64,000 bases of DNA, taken from a virus. Every line of letters begins with the position of its first letter. Position 1 is the first letter of the stretch. The stretch lies in IMG/VR virus record IMGVR_UViG_3300029790_000003, one strand, 5' to 3'. Shown in pieces: positions 10,235 to 39,187 of the stretch. A model generated the notes under the pieces. It saw only the letters and a list, made by a program, of their open reading frames with translations. It did no database searches and was not told the origin of the DNA. The position numbers and the translations under genes were made by a program.

Positions 10235-11452
10235 TTAAGGTCTAAAATCATGCTTTTTTCTTTCCTCGCTTTCATATTCTGCACATTTTTCGGCGCAAAT
10301 AGTCCCTCCACAGGAAAACATAGCTTCTGGCATTTGCACTTTTTCATCATATTCTTTGCCTAATTTAAGCATTGAAAACATATTACCATAGTCTTCTCTA
10401 GTAACACAATTTGACCAATATTTATTTGACGCATAATGATTTAAAAGTCTTAATCCTTGTTCGGTAGTTAAAACTGGGTGAGGTTCATTGTATGTTTGAT
10501 AGTATTCCCTGTAATATTCTCTTAGCAATTCTGTGAAACCATTAAGGTACGGAATTAAGCTAACTCTATTTTGCGGCGAATATCTTTCAGAAAAGAAATA
10601 TCCATTATTTTCTAAATCAAGCCCATATTTAATATTTTTTATGCTCTTTTCGCCGTCAATATCTAGTATTCCTACAAAACATTTATCCATCATATAGTTT
10701 TGTGCAAATTTATCCTTATCAAATTTAACGCTTGGATATTTGACAAATATCTTCAAATACCGTTTATTTTTCTTTTCCTCCGCAAAATCTTCTTCTGTGA
10801 TTAAATATGTTTCAACATAATATTTTAAAAGTTTCGGATTAAACTCTATTCCTCGTGATGTTAAAACTTTCTTGATATAATTGAAATAATACTTTGACTT
10901 ATTATCCCCCTTTGAGTGATTAATACACACTCCTGGTATTTTTGAAAATGCCATTACAATTTCATCGTATGAAAATTCTTTACAATATGATTTTACGGAT
11001 TTTTCCATTGCGTCCATAATTTTATCTGCTGAAAATCTTTTCAACCAGATTCCTATTTCTTTGCGTCCGTTATCGTTTACATCACACCCTGTCAATTGTT
11101 CAAAATATTCGGTTAGCATGTTTACTGCCATATTATCATAATCGAGTAGCTCTTTCTTCCATTCAGCAATCATTTCCAACTGTTCTTTTTTCTCTGCAAG
11201 ATCTTTTAATGCTTCCTGTTGAAACGATATTGCTTTGGAATCTAAAATTCTAGTTTTTCCCTTCCCTCTATTGCAGTCGCGGCACGAAGTAATTAAATTT
11301 GTAATCTCATTATCCCCGCCCTCTGCTACTGGCTCAATATGGTCTACTTCCAAAATTACGTCTGGTGACATTCTTCCACAGTATTGACATGTGAATTTGT
11401 CTCTTTTGAATACTTCAAATCTGATTTTCTTGCTAAGTGGTTTTCTTGCCAT
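10235..11452 (-). CDS. HNH endonuclease-domain protein with ~330-aa C-terminal extension
   Basis: Start moved to MARKPL (RBS AAAGGCAGG); CQYCGR..EVDHIEPVAEGG..NLITSCRDCN HNH motif. Confidence 0.65.
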   Translation of the reverse strand: MARKPLSKKIRFEVFKRDKFTCQYCGRMSPDVILEVDHIEPVAEGGDNEITNLITSCRDCNRGKGKTRILDSKAISFQQEALKDLAEKKEQLEMIAEWKKELLDYDNMAVNMLTEYFEQLTGCDVNDNGRKEIGIWLKRFSADKIMDAMEKSVKSYCKEFSYDEIVMAFSKIPGVCINHSKGDNKSKYYFNYIKKVLTSRGIEFNPKLLKYYVETYLITEEDFAEEKKNKRYLKIFVKYPSVKFDKDKFAQNYMMDKCFVGILDIDGEKSIKNIKYGLDLENNGYFFSERYSPQNRVSLIPYLNGFTELLREYYREYYQTYNEPHPVLTTEQGLRLLNHYASNKYWSNCVTREDYGNMFSMLKLGKEYDEKVQMPEAMFSCGGTICAEKCAEYESEERKKHDFRP

Positions 11453-11580
11453 AGATTGATACCTGCCTTTCGTATAAAAGAGTGCCTTGAACTGTATGTA
11501 AATCAACAGGCAGGCGGCAAGGCATTTCCGCTTTTCGATGATCGGTCTAGCCTGTTGGTTTTACCAAAATTAACGGTTAA

Positions 11581-34225: not shown

Positions 34226-34475
34226 AGTAAATCAGTAAGTAATTTGCAATTTTTCTAAGATCATTTTTCCCATACAGACGAATTCCATCTTTCAATCCTC
34301 TGTCAATCAGCCAATCAGCTAACTTTATTGGTTGTGTAGGTGGTTCATCTTTGGATTTTTCTATCTTAAAATCATCAATTAAACCACCTCTATTTATAAG
34401 TTCAGAAAGTTCGCTCATCGGTACTATGCCTCCTTGTTTTTCCATCACTATTGAAGCAAACCCATGTGAAGCCAT
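34206..34475 (-). CDS. Hypothetical protein (89 aa)
   Basis: ORF only. Confidence 0.4.
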   Translation of the reverse strand: MASHGFASIVMEKQGGIVPMSELSELINRGGLIDDFKIEKSKDEPPTQPIKLADWLIDRGLKDGIRLYGKNDLRKIANYLLIYCGDEND

Positions 34476-34630
34476 CGTGTTTTCTGCAATTCTTACAACT
34501 TTTTTCGTTCATAAATTACCTCGATTTAGAAAAATCCAGTGTGCCGACTTGAACGGCATAAATCTCCCAACGAGAAGCACTGGAACTTTAAGGGGGAAAA
34601 TGCAACTTCTGGCAATGGCAATTTGCCAGA

Positions 34631-34702
34631 TAGAAACAACAGGAATCGAACCTGTGTCACATGATATTCAATATCATTGCTCTACCACTGAGCTATGTTT
34701 CT
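34631..34702 (-). tRNA. tRNA, class-I cloverleaf with anticodon UGA (Ser-type anticodon but short variable arm)
   Basis: Manual fold: acceptor AGAAACA/TGTTTCT, D-arm GCTC-AGTGGTA-GAGC, AC arm ATGAT-ATTGAAT-ATCAT, T-arm ACAGG-TTCGATT-CCTGT, discriminator A. Confidence 0.6.
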
Positions 34703-34925
34703 TTTTTCATCATAAAACGCTAAACTAGATGATTTTTTTAGAATCCCCGACTATCACTCCTCACGGGCATTGGTCTTATCTCTCTAAAAAGTTTTTGCAC
34801 AAGATCGCTAGTGAGTTGCGTCTATATGCCTGCACGAATGCACGCAAACGCATCCGCATTTATGTGCAAGAACTAACAATAGCTATGCTAAAGTCAGATG
34901 TCCTATCTACACTTGGTAGATGGAA

Positions 34926-34997
34926 TAGCAGGAGACGGATTCGAACCGCCGTTTCCATTGATATGAGCCATGTGAGATTCTGCTTCTCTATCCTGCT
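34926..34997 (-). tRNA. tRNA with anticodon CAU (Met/Ile2-type)
   Basis: Manual fold: acceptor AGCAGGA/TCCTGCT, AC arm CATGG-CTCATAT-CAATG (one G-A mismatch), T-arm GGCGG-TTCGAAT-CCGTC. Confidence 0.5.
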
Positions 34998-35166
34998 ATG
35001 TACATGTTTGGAAGAACCATTTCAGCACGTTCACTTATTGACTACTAGAGGAAGTCACTATATCACCGATAAACAGTACGTATTCGGAACTCGGTTATAC
35101 ATTCCTACGCACTGCTCTGTGCTTTTCCTACCACCAAACTTTCAGTCTCCAAACAATCGGAAAGGA

Positions 35167-35235
35167 TGGATTCGAACCATCAAGACCTAGTCGACTAGCC
35201 CGTTCCCAGTTACTTGCACTTTCCGAATAACCCGG
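35167..35235 (-). tRNA. tRNA-like element, non-canonical (possible tRNA relic)
   Basis: Good acceptor (CGGAAAG/CTTTCCG) and T-arm (GATGG-TTCGAAT-CCATC), but only 69 nt; no foldable D/anticodon arms; contains palindrome CTAGTCGACTAG. Confidence 0.3.
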
Positions 35236-35516
35236 TTCTTCCGGGTTAGCAATAGGTTTATCGTGTTATGCTTTCCACTATCTACAAGTTTTAGTGCTGT
35301 AGATTCACTGGATATTTTTATGCGTCTTTGAACGGCATCTCTTGAAAACTCCTTTTATTAACGTGCGCTGCGTTAATGTTTTTAACTCCGAGATATACCA
35401 GCCGGGAAATCAGATCCATTTAAGCTACGCCGTATCGCACCTAAATTCACCTAATCCACACGCTCAACTGGAAGTTTTTTCCACCCATATTACGGATGAA
35501 TGGCATTTAGAAGAAA

Positions 35517-35589
35517 TAGAAGCTCTGGGATTCGAACCCAGGACTTACGACTTATGAGGCCGTTGCTCTTACCGCTGAACTAAGCTTCC
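35517..35589 (-). tRNA. tRNA with anticodon CAU (Met/Ile2-type)
   Basis: Acceptor GGAAGCT/AGCTTCT (G1-U72), D-arm GTTC-AGCGGTA-GAGC, AC arm ACGGC-CTCATAA-GTCGT, T-arm CTGGG-TTCGAAT-CCCAG. Confidence 0.65.
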
Positions 35590-35739
35590 TAAGATACCGA
35601 ATTATTTGACCGCCATGACAAACAATCCGGCACTGTTGCAGTTCTTGACCACCAGCCGCAACAAAGGTTTTCTGAAACACTTTTAGATTTCAGAAAAGAG
35701 TGTTATAAAATGAACTTGCGGCATTAGCGAAACCGCAAA

Positions 35740-35812
35740 CTGGGCTAACTGGATTCGAACCAGCAAATGCAGCAGTCAAAGTGCTGTGCCTTAACCATTT
35801 GGCGATAGCCCA
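35740..35812 (-). tRNA. tRNA-Gln (anticodon UUG)
   Basis: Acceptor TGGGCTA/TAGCCCA with U1-A72 and discriminator G (Gln-like), AC arm CAGCA-CTTTGAC-TGCTG, T-arm GCTGG-TTCGAAT-CCAGT. Confidence 0.65.
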
Positions 35813-36048
35813 TTATCACCCGGGCGCACCATTAAAGCCCGGGGAAATCGTGATATATAAGTTTATGTAATTAGTATAATAAGCAATTAACACTTAAGCT
35901 ACTCTGGATGCCTCGACTTATCACTTTCATAGGTTTTCCCGAGCCTACATGGATTAAGTCGAAGCGGCGCTTTTATGAATTTAACCCTTTCGATTAACTC
36001 AATCGGGATAATTCCAATTGGAATTAGTAGATACATGGGGTTCTCCTC

Positions 36049-36564
36049 TTATTCTGCAAAAATCCAATCCTCTGCTAACATATCTGCTTGAGATGCAAAC
36101 CATCCCATCTGTACGCCAGATGTTCCGACAAAAGCAATGGCTTTGTTTCCGATTGCATCATGTTCACAATTTACAATTTCATTATCAGCAGTCTTATATG
36201 AAATTCCAGTGGCAATCTGAATGTACTGTTTCTTTCCATTCCAGCCTTTACGAGACACTTTAAGTCCTCTTTTCAGATAACGGATAGCGTCACCAAATCC
36301 AAATGTTGACTGACCACCAAGAACACCACAGTTATTCTCATCAGCAATCATCCAGTCATCTCGCTGTGTGTGCATGAAAGTATATTCTACTCTCTGTGTT
36401 TCACGGATATCGAGAACTGCTCCCTGGCCTTGATCGGAATCTTTTGGTCTGCAATGAATCATAATCGTCTGTTTTTCATCGTCCCAACACCGGTAACCAT
36501 TCCATCCTGGAAGTTTCACTTTTGCTCCCTGTTTCATAAGTTTTAATGCTTCTGAAAATTTCAT
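36049..36564 (-). CDS. Tandem DUF2829-domain protein (171 aa)
   Basis: Start moved to MKFSEALKLMKQG (RBS AAAGGAGGA); two M.F.EAL..K.G.KV.R.GW-type modules. Confidence 0.55.
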   Translation of the reverse strand: MKFSEALKLMKQGAKVKLPGWNGYRCWDDEKQTIMIHCRPKDSDQGQGAVLDIRETQRVEYTFMHTQRDDWMIADENNCGVLGGQSTFGFGDAIRYLKRGLKVSRKGWNGKKQYIQIATGISYKTADNEIVNCEHDAIGNKAIAFVGTSGVQMGWFASQADMLAEDWIFAE

Positions 36565-36578
36565 TTCTATATCCTCCT

Positions 36579-36773
36579 TTACCTCGTGCAAATTAAGAAA
36601 ATATTCAGTGCGAAACATATTTCTAAACAAATACAGAATAAAATCTGTATTACGCTTGTCTTTCCTTCTTCGTCCAGTATGGCTAAAGTACCGGCAAGAA
36701 CCAGAACGAAAAATGCAAGATTTACAGCTGTTCCGATTACATTAAGTGCATTCATTTTCTTTTTCCTCCCCAA
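36579..36773 (-). CDS. Small membrane protein (64 aa)
   Basis: Hydrophobic ORF. Confidence 0.35.
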   Translation of the reverse strand: MGRKKKMNALNVIGTAVNLAFFVLVLAGTLAILDEEGKTSVIQILFCICLEICFALNIFLICTR

Positions 36774-38076: not shown

Positions 38077-38541
38077 TCAACTTACAATTTCAATTGGATA
38101 TCCTAAGTATGCTTCTAACTCTGAAACAGTCAGTTTGCGTGGTTTCTTTATTTCAACATAAGCACGCTGTATGATATTGTCTTTTGTCTTTGCGATTGCC
38201 TTTCCAGTATAACTTTCAAGCTCTTCGTTTGCATATACATTCAAATGTTCATATCCATATGCCCGGCACCATCTTGCAGCTGAATCAACAATTTTTCTTA
38301 GCTCTTCTTGCTCATCACCAAACAACTCCGAATATCTAACCGCTTTGTTGAAATCACTCGAACTTACTTCATAAGGAGCCACAACATGTTTATATGGACT
38401 TCCAATAAAATGAAAGTATCTATGTGATTCCATTGCTTTTTGGCCTTTTGGTAAGTTGAATCCTTGAGCTATTGCTTTTTTTAAGCAACTGTTCTGATTC
38501 AACATTGTTTTCTGTAACAATACACTTGTTTGTAAAATCAA
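38077..38541 (-). CDS. Hypothetical protein (154 aa)
   Basis: ORF with a 4-nt overlap to the resolvase gene. Confidence 0.45.
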   Translation of the reverse strand: MILQTSVLLQKTMLNQNSCLKKAIAQGFNLPKGQKAMESHRYFHFIGSPYKHVVAPYEVSSSDFNKAVRYSELFGDEQEELRKIVDSAARWCRAYGYEHLNVYANEELESYTGKAIAKTKDNIIQRAYVEIKKPRKLTVSELEAYLGYPIEIVS

Positions 38542-39128
38542 TCATCTTTATCCCCCTCTAAAAGTTTATATAACGTACTTCTTGAAACTCCTATAATATT
38601 GGCAAATTGTACCTTTGTTATTTCCCCTCTTTGCCAGCTACGTTTAGTTTCGTTGAAAAGTTCCTTATCTATCTCTTTTTTGGCACGACCTTTATATTTG
38701 CCCTTGGCTTTTGCAATTAAAATACCTTCTTTTTGTCGCTGACGAATATTTTCCCTTTCTCTTTGTGCTACATATGAGAGAAGCTGCAAAACTATGTCTG
38801 CGATCAATGTTCCTGTCAAGTCTTTATTTTGCGTAGTATTAAGTAACGGCATATCCTGTACAATAATATCTGCTTCAATCTCTTTTGTGATTCTTCTCCA
38901 TTCAGCAATAATCTCTTCGTAGTTTCTTCCAAGACGGTCAATTGAATGGATTACCAGAATGTCACCTTTTTGAAGAGAAGCAATCATTTTCTGGTACTCT
39001 GGACGATTGAAGTCTTTCCCAGATTTTTTATCCATATAAATTCTTTCAACACCATCTGCTTTCATTGCTTCAATTTGTCTCGCTTCATTTTGCTCTACTG
39101 TTGAAACTCTTACATATCCTACTTTCAT
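38538..39128 (-). CDS. Small serine recombinase (resolvase/invertase family, 196 aa)
   Basis: Start MKVGYVRVSTVEQ (RBS CAGGAGCG); catalytic Ser motif; C-terminal HTH (IIGVSRSTLYKLL). Confidence 0.85.
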   Translation of the reverse strand: MKVGYVRVSTVEQNEARQIEAMKADGVERIYMDKKSGKDFNRPEYQKMIASLQKGDILVIHSIDRLGRNYEEIIAEWRRITKEIEADIIVQDMPLLNTTQNKDLTGTLIADIVLQLLSYVAQRERENIRQRQKEGILIAKAKGKYKGRAKKEIDKELFNETKRSWQRGEITKVQFANIIGVSRSTLYKLLEGDKDD

Positions 39129-39158
39129 ATATACACGCTCCTGTTTCTTTATAAAACA

Positions 39159-39187
39159 ATTATACACTATAATGTGTGTGTTTTCAA
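39159..39187 (-). promoter_or_regulatory. Sigma-70-type promoter for the resolvase gene (TTGAAA-17-TATAAT)
   Basis: Minus-strand -35 at 39182-39187, -10 at 39159-39164, 17-nt spacer. Confidence 0.6.

Follow-up and report, generated by a model that had tools for sequence, protein, structure and literature searches.

The viral genome recorded in IMG/VR as IMGVR_UViG_3300029790_000003 was analyzed as one strand of 64,000 nucleotides (nt), which we refer to as the window, and carries at positions 34,631 to 35,812 a phage-borne array of four minus-strand transfer RNA (tRNA) genes and one tRNA-like element of sub-threshold score, all co-oriented according to ARAGORN and the Rfam tRNA model RF00005. 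The order along the minus strand is tRNA-Gln(UUG), S1, tRNA(CAU), S2, tRNA-like element, S3, tRNA(CAU), S4 and tRNA(UGA), where S1 to S4 denote the spacers. As judged from comparison with related loci, S1, S2 and S3 are themselves conserved RNAs that fold on the tRNA strand, where compensatory changes have preserved their helices. The array is made up as follows:

35740..35812, minus strand: tRNA-Gln, anticodon UUG (ARAGORN; RF00005, 62.7 bits)
35590..35739, minus strand: spacer S1, 150-nt form (fold z = -5.0)
35517..35589, minus strand: tRNA with anticodon CAU, elongator type (U11:G24), 73 nt (ARAGORN; RF00005, 65.8 bits)
35226..35516, minus strand: spacer S2, structured RNA of ~290 nt (covariation; no Rfam match at E <= 10)
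35157..35225, minus strand: tRNA-like element 'type A', 69 nt (RF00005, 27.1 bits, below the gathering score of 29)
34999..35156, minus strand: spacer S3, multi-helix RNA of ~157 nt with helices P1-P6 and a proposed CCGA/UCGG pseudoknot (covariance model R1; no Rfam match)
34925..34998, minus strand: tRNA with anticodon CAU, initiator-like family, 74 nt (ARAGORN; RF00005, 46.8 bits)
34703..34924, minus strand: spacer S4, 222-nt form (sequence conserved; fold z = -1.67)
34631..34702, minus strand: class I tRNA with Trp-type body, anticodon UGA, 72 nt (ARAGORN, as 'tRNA-Ser'; RF00005, 67.2 bits)

Calling of tRNAs combined ARAGORN with RF00005, whose gathering score is 29 bits and whose E-values were taken over the 64-kb window. 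The four regular members of the initial annotation are all called by ARAGORN and score 67.2, 46.8, 65.8 and 62.7 bits against that threshold, with E-values (1.9e-12 to 7.8e-07) that argue against chance matches; their anticodons UGA, CAU, CAU and UUG are likewise as first read. The co-oriented array of five elements also stands, with start-to-start distances of 223, 364, 227 and 296 bp (223-364 bp) in place of the 220-290 bp originally given and with spacers of 150, 291, 158 and 222 nt. None of the five units encodes a CCA end, and all five have a U at position +1. When folded unaided, the Gln-UUG, first CAU and UGA tRNAs give cloverleaf-shaped arms.

Related loci, labeled L001, L002 and so on, were sought by BLAST, which led to human faecal phage scaffolds sharing the spacers and not just the tRNAs, and 222 loci were drawn from IMG/VR by exact-word scans with a 17-mer and a 16-mer from S3 and a 21-mer from S2. 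The array architecture is common to well over 100 gut-virome contigs. Its plan starts with tRNA-Gln(UUG), S1, the 73-nt tRNA(CAU) and S2; most arrays continue with a tRNA-Tyr(GUA) or tRNA-like element, S3 and the 74-nt tRNA(CAU), and end in a variable spacer (117 nt, 222 nt, ~545 nt or ~1.9 kb) followed by one further tRNA. Some arrays lack the unit of Tyr/tRNA-like slot plus S3, and in these S2 abuts the 74-nt tRNA directly.

Throughout the comparison, a pair counts as compensatory when both its sides have changed and pairing is kept, and the controls are alignments with the pairing partners slid and 500 shuffles. A structure of S3 drawn by hand on 25 sequences has 96% of its cells paired and 11 pairs changed on both sides, and the covariance model R1 built from this alignment recovers 55 S3 copies in 70 sources at 42 to 198 bits. 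In the alignment fitted by that model 25 of the 40 pairs are compensatory, 93.8% of cells are paired as opposed to 32-47% with partners slid, and the covariation score of 0.349 (0.155 when shuffled) is reached by 0 of 500 shuffles; that the fold belongs to the tRNA strand follows from G.U pairs that never vary. S3 is also closely bracketed by tRNA-type elements: among 102 complete copies with enough flanking sequence, a tRNA T arm lies at most 40 nt upstream in 99 and at most 95 nt downstream in 100. In the 28 loci compared at this resolution, the upstream tRNAs called by ARAGORN (Tyr, Pro, Ile, Thr or Met) end between -4 and +2 nt from the 5' end of S3 and the downstream tRNA(CAU) usually follows after 0-23 nt, distant phages of 115-172 kb included. 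Two distant S3 copies lie 32 and 68 nt from a tRNA-Gln, and where the tRNA-like element precedes S3, as it does in the window, ARAGORN makes no call at that place. The window copy is ~99% identical to the S3 of L002, where the adjacent tRNA-like element has diverged.

S2 is supported by the same kind of evidence, with 21 of 68 pairs compensatory, 93.9% of cells paired compared to at most 46% when slid, and a covariation score that 0 of 500 shuffles reach. Its 40-nt 3' core, UAGUGGAAAGCAUAACACGAUAAACMUAUUGCUAACCCGG, is invariant in 14 diverse sequences save for the two-state position M, a 21-nt S2 core occurs in at least 119 viral contigs, and the terminal hairpin abuts the next tRNA-type element. 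The initial annotation had described the spacers as containing hairpins and named two, both of which are present: UUAACG-CAGCGCA-CGUUAA corresponds to helix 5 of S2, in which two pairs covary, and AACCCGG-AAGAA-CCGGGUU is its helix 8. That description nevertheless understated the conserved modules that S1 to S3 represent. S1 consists of a hairpin abutting the 3' end of tRNA-Gln, a second with the conserved loop YUGGUGGNNAAGAA and a variable one before the next tRNA, and 14 of its 28 predicted pairs are compensatory across 17 sequences. For S4 the nine distinct homologues differ in only about a dozen of 224 aligned columns and are too alike for a test of the fold; in relatives its slot holds a 117-nt variant, a ~1.9-kb stretch or ROOL RNA. 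No Rfam family matches the window's spacers at its gathering threshold or in a permissive scan of 34300-36100 that reports matches down to E <= 10.

Two further observations concern these spacers. Relatives may carry an optional S1 module of ~63 nt (for example within L006 1603-1814), missing from the window's S1 at 35590-35739 and also without an Rfam match; it forms a three-way junction, exemplified by GGUCUUC-UAGCCCAACGGGGCUG-AUUAAA-GGGGCUUCAAAUGUCCC-GGAAGACC, with compensatory changes in its outer stem and first hairpin. Within S2, a mini open reading frame (ORF) encoding MPFKDA after AGGAG was considered and ruled out, its ATG being ATA in L007 and absent in L015.

The element between S2 and S3 was initially described as degenerate, and in terms of lost arms and score (27.1 bits) it is. 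It retains a 7-bp acceptor stem (CGGAAAG/CUUUCCG) and a canonical T arm, its D region is non-canonical and without a D stem, and its 'anticodon' loop has collapsed to 4 nt (GCUAG-UCGA-CUAGG). The RF00005 alignment leaves the D arm and the anticodon loop largely unaligned, and the centroid fold contains the acceptor and T arms only. With a score under 29 bits, no 7-nt loop and no D stem, we file 35157-35225 as tRNA-like. Random decay, however, does not fit its distribution: it belongs to a conserved tRNA-like family with the acceptor stem YGGAAWG/CNUUCCR, which occupies the slot held in other relatives by a tRNA-Tyr(GUA) of class II (84-92 nt). In 22 loci the 69-nt form is found unchanged, ~20 have a 72-nt form whose loop reads UCGUAGA or UCAUAGA, and sister types have loops of 5, 6 or 9 nt. 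Acceptor and T arms that are kept while the anticodon arm varies would be expected of a substrate for RNase P and RNase Z, not of a decoder.

Two side observations touch on this element. A second, canonical tRNA family of 72 nt (CGGAAUG...CUUUCCGA), mostly Thr(UGU), occurs in L067, L072, L135, L142, L125, L103 and others; the same body is also found with UAU, UGC or UCU anticodons and with 6-nt loops, and it has an acceptor stem that matches the one in the anticodon-less element of the window. ARAGORN further reports a 472-nt transfer-messenger RNA with tag ERAEMVLPNMYIAG at L044 9560-10031 and L047 6906-7377, which is pieced together from four units of the array (tRNA-like element, S3, initiator-like tRNA and last tRNA) and is almost certainly an artefact that arises where tRNA halves lie on either side of a structured RNA.

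The last tRNA of the array owes its 'Ser' label to its anticodon. A long variable arm is the main element by which seryl-tRNA synthetase identifies bacterial (class II) tRNA-Ser, and true tRNA-Ser genes of related arrays measure 84-86 nt. The variable region at 34631-34702 is 5 nt (GUGAC), and a tRNA-Ser identity is ruled out by this short variable arm and by a body common to tRNAs with CCA and UCA anticodons. The fold predicts an anticodon arm of 7 bp with a 3-nt loop, and the D arm and variable region resemble those of the canonical phage tRNA-Trp(CCA) of L006. The 72-nt body is the same across 50 loci save for four rare single-base variants, and the anticodon loops it carries are:

Loop AUUGAAU, anticodon UGA: 32 of 50 loci, including copies identical to the window's
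Loop ACUCAAU, anticodon UCA: 13 of 50 loci
Loop AUCCAAU, anticodon CCA: 3 of 50 loci
Loop AUUCAAU, anticodon UCA: 1 of 50 loci
Loop ACUGAAU, anticodon UGA: 1 of 50 loci

With U34 G35 A36, the window copy has neither the CCA of a tRNA-Trp nor the UCA of an opal suppressor, the anticodons suited to TrpRS and to reading UGG or UGA, and its body marks it as a Trp-type tRNA, separated from CCA by two single-base steps that pass through the opal suppressor. Most likely it derives from an opal-suppressor tRNA-Trp that has been silenced and would be uncharged or poorly charged; a Trp-charged UGA tRNA would give widespread missense. Body variants with A1 and with U1 each occur with UGA and with UCA, and the anticodon has consequently either changed repeatedly or spread by recombination. 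The anticodon arm ATGAT-ATTCAAT-ATCAT (UCA, with U33) is moreover the exact reverse complement of ATGAT-ATTGAAT-ATCAT (UGA), so that the two forms could be converted into each other by a C/G transversion or by flipping the hairpin. Two other ideas about this gene were discarded: pairing of its anticodon loop with an invariant UUCAA in S2, because S2 stays constant while the anticodon changes, and reassignment of TCA to Trp, because TCA (20-28% of Ser codons) aligns like other Ser codons, with S, A and T, and with W in 0.4%.

Duplication of the CAU anticodon had suggested that one of the two might be an initiator, and this holds for the family to which the second copy, 34925-34998, belongs and only in part for the copy itself. 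Its D stem GAGA/UCUC gives A11:U24, an initiator hallmark that all relatives share. Position 1:72 is a mismatch in many relatives (C1xA72, A1xA72 or C1xU72, as in the CGCGGAG...CUCCGCU of L207), and the window copy has the pair A1-U72 instead of the mismatch typical of initiators. Of the three consecutive G-C pairs that bacterial initiators have at the foot of the anticodon stem, at 29:41, 30:40 and 31:39, relatives have two, namely G30-C40 and G31-C39, of which only G31-C39 is left in the window copy; the resulting G30xA40 mismatch is the one non-standard pair in its RF00005 alignment, lies in the anticodon stem and leaves the predicted fold without a proper one. When set against near-identical IMG/VR arrays, this copy also has a private change of G18 to A. 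Because of A1-U72, G18 to A and G30xA40, the function of this copy is doubtful. The family itself lies directly 3' of S3 in almost every array, including those of distant phages of 115-172 kb, a linkage that hints at a role for S3 in translation.

Just after the initiator-like tRNA of four relatives lie RF00005 matches of 48-49 bits that span 114-121 nt (L006 2723-2836, L007 1982-2099, L048 4266-4381 and L001 3518-3638). These may be tRNAs with a large insertion or intron; ARAGORN calls none of them.

The remaining two genes, tRNA-Gln(UUG) and the first CAU tRNA, probably function in decoding. The tRNA-Gln has U1-A72 and G73, its minimum-energy fold is a cloverleaf, and nearly all related arrays with an intact start have it as their first tRNA gene. 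The elongator-type CAU tRNA at 35517-35589 has two private changes relative to near-identical IMG/VR arrays, C40 to U and C72 to U, which produce G30.U40 and G1.U72; a BLAST search against annotated phage tRNAs returned Arg, Thr and Lys tRNAs only, and its isotype may be Met or lysidine-type Ile2. In the window, CAA accounts for 44-53% of Gln codons and ATA for 19-27% of Ile codons, and the usage of CAA, TCA and ATG does not differ between late and upstream genes.

The borders of the array are marked by three further features:

35850..35859, minus strand: candidate promoter or start box TATATATCAC, ~40 nt upstream of tRNA-Gln
35819..35843, minus strand: leader hairpin CCCGGG ... CCCGGG, directly 5' of tRNA-Gln, as read from the sequence
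34608..34630, minus strand: terminator-like hairpin and U-rich tail immediately 3' of the last tRNA, from a consensus scan

The core of the putative box, ATATCAC, mostly in the form TATATCAC, is present in every group shown of 46 distinct upstream sequences with differing surroundings, and every array type has both box and leader hairpin ahead of tRNA-Gln. The leader hairpin is kept even as its stems differ (CCCCGG/CCGGGG, CCCCTGG/CCAGGGG and TTCCGGG/CCCGGAA in relatives). The terminator-like hairpin reads UCUGGCAA-AUUGCCA-UUGCCAGA, followed by AGUUGCAUUU, and a consensus scan called no sigma-70-type promoter within the array on the minus strand. We also considered TATATCAC as a general promoter of the phage, which its lack of enrichment in the rest of the window (10 matches vs. 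5.4 expected) rules out.

In light of these results, we read the locus as a probable polycistronic operon of phage non-coding RNAs, whose tRNA-shaped units would guide cleavage by RNase P and RNase Z and thus free the RNAs between them. The upstream box and leader, the terminal hairpin and the lack of an internal promoter-like site together suggest a single precursor, which would run from the TATATATCAC box upstream of tRNA-Gln to the hairpin after the last tRNA. Host RNase P would cut at every tRNA 5' end and RNase Z after every discriminator base, and the same cuts would both mature the tRNAs and release S1 to S4 as discrete RNAs. In Bacillus subtilis, CCA-less tRNAs followed by U are typical RNase Z substrates. 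The anticodon-less element would then persist as a marker of the boundary between S2 and S3, and the anticodon of the last tRNA would be free to change, decoding being not its sole role or no longer its role.

Several points weigh against such an operon. Co-transcription and RNase P/RNase Z release are both steps that we infer from layout alone, and the hairpins abutting tRNA 3' ends could be terminators, in which case the block would comprise several transcription units. The S3 counts come from a model-fitted alignment of related sequences, and both circumstances inflate shuffle statistics, even though the slid controls and the hand alignment agree with the model-fitted result; the proposed S3 pseudoknot is invariant and thus beyond the reach of comparison, and S4, with its nine near-identical homologues, shows no compensatory pairs. 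Part of the array may simply be decaying: the second CAU tRNA has G18 to A and G30xA40, the tRNA-like element has lost 3 nt, and the last tRNA bears UGA on a Trp-type body.

The most familiar alternative is an ordinary codon-supplementing tRNA cluster, serving late genes in particular, with spacers made up of promoters, terminators and filler. Four good tRNA genes just upstream of the late genes would suit this, CAA and ATA are frequent enough to give work to Gln-UUG and a possible Ile2, and some of the tRNAs are followed by U-tailed hairpins. We regard it as quite unlikely nonetheless: the matching codons are used alike in late and upstream genes, two to three of the five units are unlikely to decode (the 4-nt loop, UGA on a Trp-type body and the damaged initiator-like copy), and the spacers are conserved at least as well as the tRNAs, as the ~99% identity of S3 to that of L002 illustrates, with many of their helices kept by compensatory changes. 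The same conserved spacers are left unexplained if the array is instead an anti-defence set, in which tRNAs and their look-alikes would replace or decoy for host tRNAs cut by anticodon nucleases and an arms race would play out in the anticodon arms. This proposal, which we judge unlikely, draws on a neighboring Tad2-like anti-Thoeris gene and a weak Lar-like match, on two tRNA families that keep their body while the anticodon arm varies in sequence and loop length, and on published precedents (PMC10264068, PMC11555353, PMC11464382). However, the anticodon itself changes, so that a replacement would no longer read the same codons; a Trp-type body with UGA cannot stand in for tRNA-Ser; and no nuclease or host is known for these phages.

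Decay of the whole array into a relic, with the conservation reflecting mere close kinship of the sampled phages, is in our estimation very unlikely. Damaging private or lineage-specific changes do occur (G18 to A, G30xA40, the two G-C to G.U changes and the 3-nt loss), S4 lacks covariation and many loci are nearly identical; yet S2 and S3 are present in divergent phages (S3 at ~42-105 bits in genomes of 115-172 kb) with helices kept by compensation, and the anticodon-less form is identical in 22 loci where relics would be decaying in different ways. Decay may thus apply to individual copies, not to the whole module. The least probable explanation, to which we give hardly any weight, is stop-codon recoding, with TGA read as an amino acid in late genes by a suppressor tRNA that a hepatitis delta virus (HDV)-like 'theta' ribozyme matures. 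Close relatives do carry the same body with UCA (14 loci), and theta ribozymes are found at the 3' ends of tRNAs, frequently suppressors, in gut phages (PMC10879173). The window copy, though, has UGA and not UCA, and TGA is the stop codon of 6 of 19 late and 14 of 33 upstream genes. When 14 window proteins were compared with 160 loci, in-frame stops in the relatives' proteins fell only in N- or C-terminal alignment overhangs, UCA-carrying loci included, which together with the common use of TGA as a stop largely rules out its recoding in the window. Theta/HDV-like, hammerhead and twister ribozymes in the spacers are ruled out by the lack of an Rfam match at E <= 10, and by inspection, an approximate test, no HDV-like nested double pseudoknot (P1, P1.1, P2, P3) could be formed within ~5 nt of the tRNA 3' ends. 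The sequences there form simple hairpins or the long-range P1 of S3, and the hairpin after tRNA-Gln has only 11 nt between its strands, which leaves no room for P1/P3 nesting.

Building on the non-coding RNA operon, a more far-reaching joint reading can be put forward, which we hold to be possible and rather doubtful as a whole. S3, and probably S2, would represent an undescribed class of phage non-coding RNA excised from tRNA arrays by tRNA-processing enzymes; S3 would work with the phage's initiator-like tRNA, for instance in phage-specific control of translation initiation; the anticodon-less look-alikes would be dedicated processing signals; and the CCA/UCA/UGA series would be a functional on/off switch of an opal suppressor, not drift.

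Some parts of this arrangement have counterparts in known systems. Precursors of the phage T4 tRNA cluster also yield species 1 and 2, stable RNAs of ~120-140 nt, via tRNA-processing enzymes; the units of the T4 cluster are tightly packed, whereas in the window each tRNA alternates with a longer structured RNA. In eukaryotic and organellar settings a non-decoding tRNA shape directs RNase P and RNase Z cuts, as in the mascRNA of MALAT1 and in mitochondrial tRNA 'punctuation'; for the window this role is suggested only by position and by the kept acceptor and T arms.

The closest likeness among phage RNAs is to ROOL and GOLLD, which sit in phage tRNA islands (PMC12286853) and are found near tRNAs possibly because they are co-transcribed with them (PMC5737381). 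As in the window, these are structured non-coding RNAs beside or between same-strand phage tRNAs with co-transcription suspected, and the ~545-nt spacer of relatives is itself ROOL RNA (RF03087, 382-389 bits), filling the S4 slot of the S3-bearing L010 and L015. The window, by contrast, contains neither ROOL nor GOLLD, and its RNAs are smaller (~150-290 nt) and without sequence kinship to Rfam models. Full-length ROOL copies lie at L010 2255-2814 and L015 5842-6400, between the initiator-like tRNA(CAU) and a tRNA-Ser(GCU), in arrays that also have S3. RAGATH-21 (RF03097, 78-90 bits) belongs to the same array family, located upstream of the Tyr/tRNA-like slot in L002, L003, L010 and L039, and L010 combines RAGATH-21, S3 and ROOL in one array. 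At its 3' end, the spacer containing RAGATH-21 has a block and a hairpin that recall those of S2, a resemblance that amounts to a short GGAG-UU-AAAA-plus-hairpin and that we do not count as homology. Neither ROOL nor RAGATH-21 matches the window at its gathering threshold, or at E <= 10 within 34300-36100, and a literature search for RAGATH-21 by name found nothing.

Theta ribozymes abut the 3' ends of tRNAs, often suppressor tRNAs, in gut phages (PMC10879173) and share with the window a setting in gut Caudoviricetes, structured RNA abutting tRNA ends, and CCA-less and suppressor tRNAs in related genomes. They differ in that they self-cleave, where processing in the window would fall to protein or ribonucleoprotein enzymes, and the window has no HDV-like fold; its elements are three to six times longer, and S3 has a tRNA abutting it at either end. 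Phage tRNAs with altered anticodon loops, in turn, escape or neutralise tRNA-targeting defences (PMC10264068, PMC11555353, PMC11464382). The likeness lies in a kept body, a differing anticodon loop and anti-defence genes nearby; those tRNAs, though, retain their anticodon and the codons they read, whereas the window family changes its anticodon (CCA, UCA, UGA) or loses the loop.

Phage tRNA arrays and tRNA-linked phage RNAs are thus already known kinds. What appears to be new are the S2 and S3 motifs, which are absent from Rfam and may already have unnamed entries in a virome catalogue of 10,006 candidate structured RNAs (PMC10690425), the way in which tRNA-type units regularly alternate with structured RNAs, the family of tRNA-like elements without an anticodon, and the occurrence of CCA, UCA and UGA on one near-invariant body. 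Codon supply and, lately, counter-defence are the usual readings of phage tRNA clusters; here most of what is conserved lies between the tRNAs. S2 and S3 are well-supported folded RNAs, widespread in gut viromes, and as smaller array partners of ROOL and RAGATH-21 they offer more tractable material for studying the RNAs of phage 'tRNA islands'. The locus also exposes two annotation pitfalls, an anticodon-based 'Ser' label on a Trp-type body and a sub-threshold 'pseudogene' that may be a kept processing signal, and its anticodon series constitutes a natural experiment on the gain and loss of suppressor tRNAs in standard-code phages.

On the opposite strand, the ORFs starting at 34351, 34729 and 35342 had been dismissed as spurious in the initial annotation. 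None has a Pfam match. Of ~90-126 divergent relatives, only 0-2 keep the long ORFs at 34351 and 34729 open, which bears out the dismissal; the 71-amino acid (aa) ORF at 35342 is open in 42 of 73 relatives below 95% identity, with stops in the most divergent ones, and is only probably spurious. Plus-strand protein coding is accordingly ruled out, less firmly for the 71-aa ORF.

Upstream of the array lies the neighbor first described as a DUF2829 gene, an assignment that is borne out:

36049..36630, minus strand: Tad2-like (DUF2829) gene (PF11195, 6.7e-26)

Downstream and on the same strand follow several small ORFs in a row, then genes for an SPFH protein and for the large terminase, and a weak match to a Lar-like restriction-alleviation protein lies near the array. 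The best matches of the terminase are unannotated human faecal phage scaffolds, and it is 33-39% identical to those of Clostridium innocuum and Eggerthella phages. The window has a GC content of 37.8%, and the S2 core has no match in 185,579 species-representative bacterial and archaeal genomes; the host is probably a member of the gut Bacillota. Farther away, an int-alpA RNA (RF02996) at 11485-11557 (minus strand, 45.4 bits vs. a threshold of 35.8) overlaps the start of a 423-aa ORF at 10235-11506 (minus strand), whose Pfam matches are HNH endonuclease domains only, with no integrase among them. A serine recombinase or DNA invertase is encoded at 38538-39167 on the minus strand (Resolvase PF00239, 7.3e-29; PHROG 125), ~2.7 kb upstream of the array.

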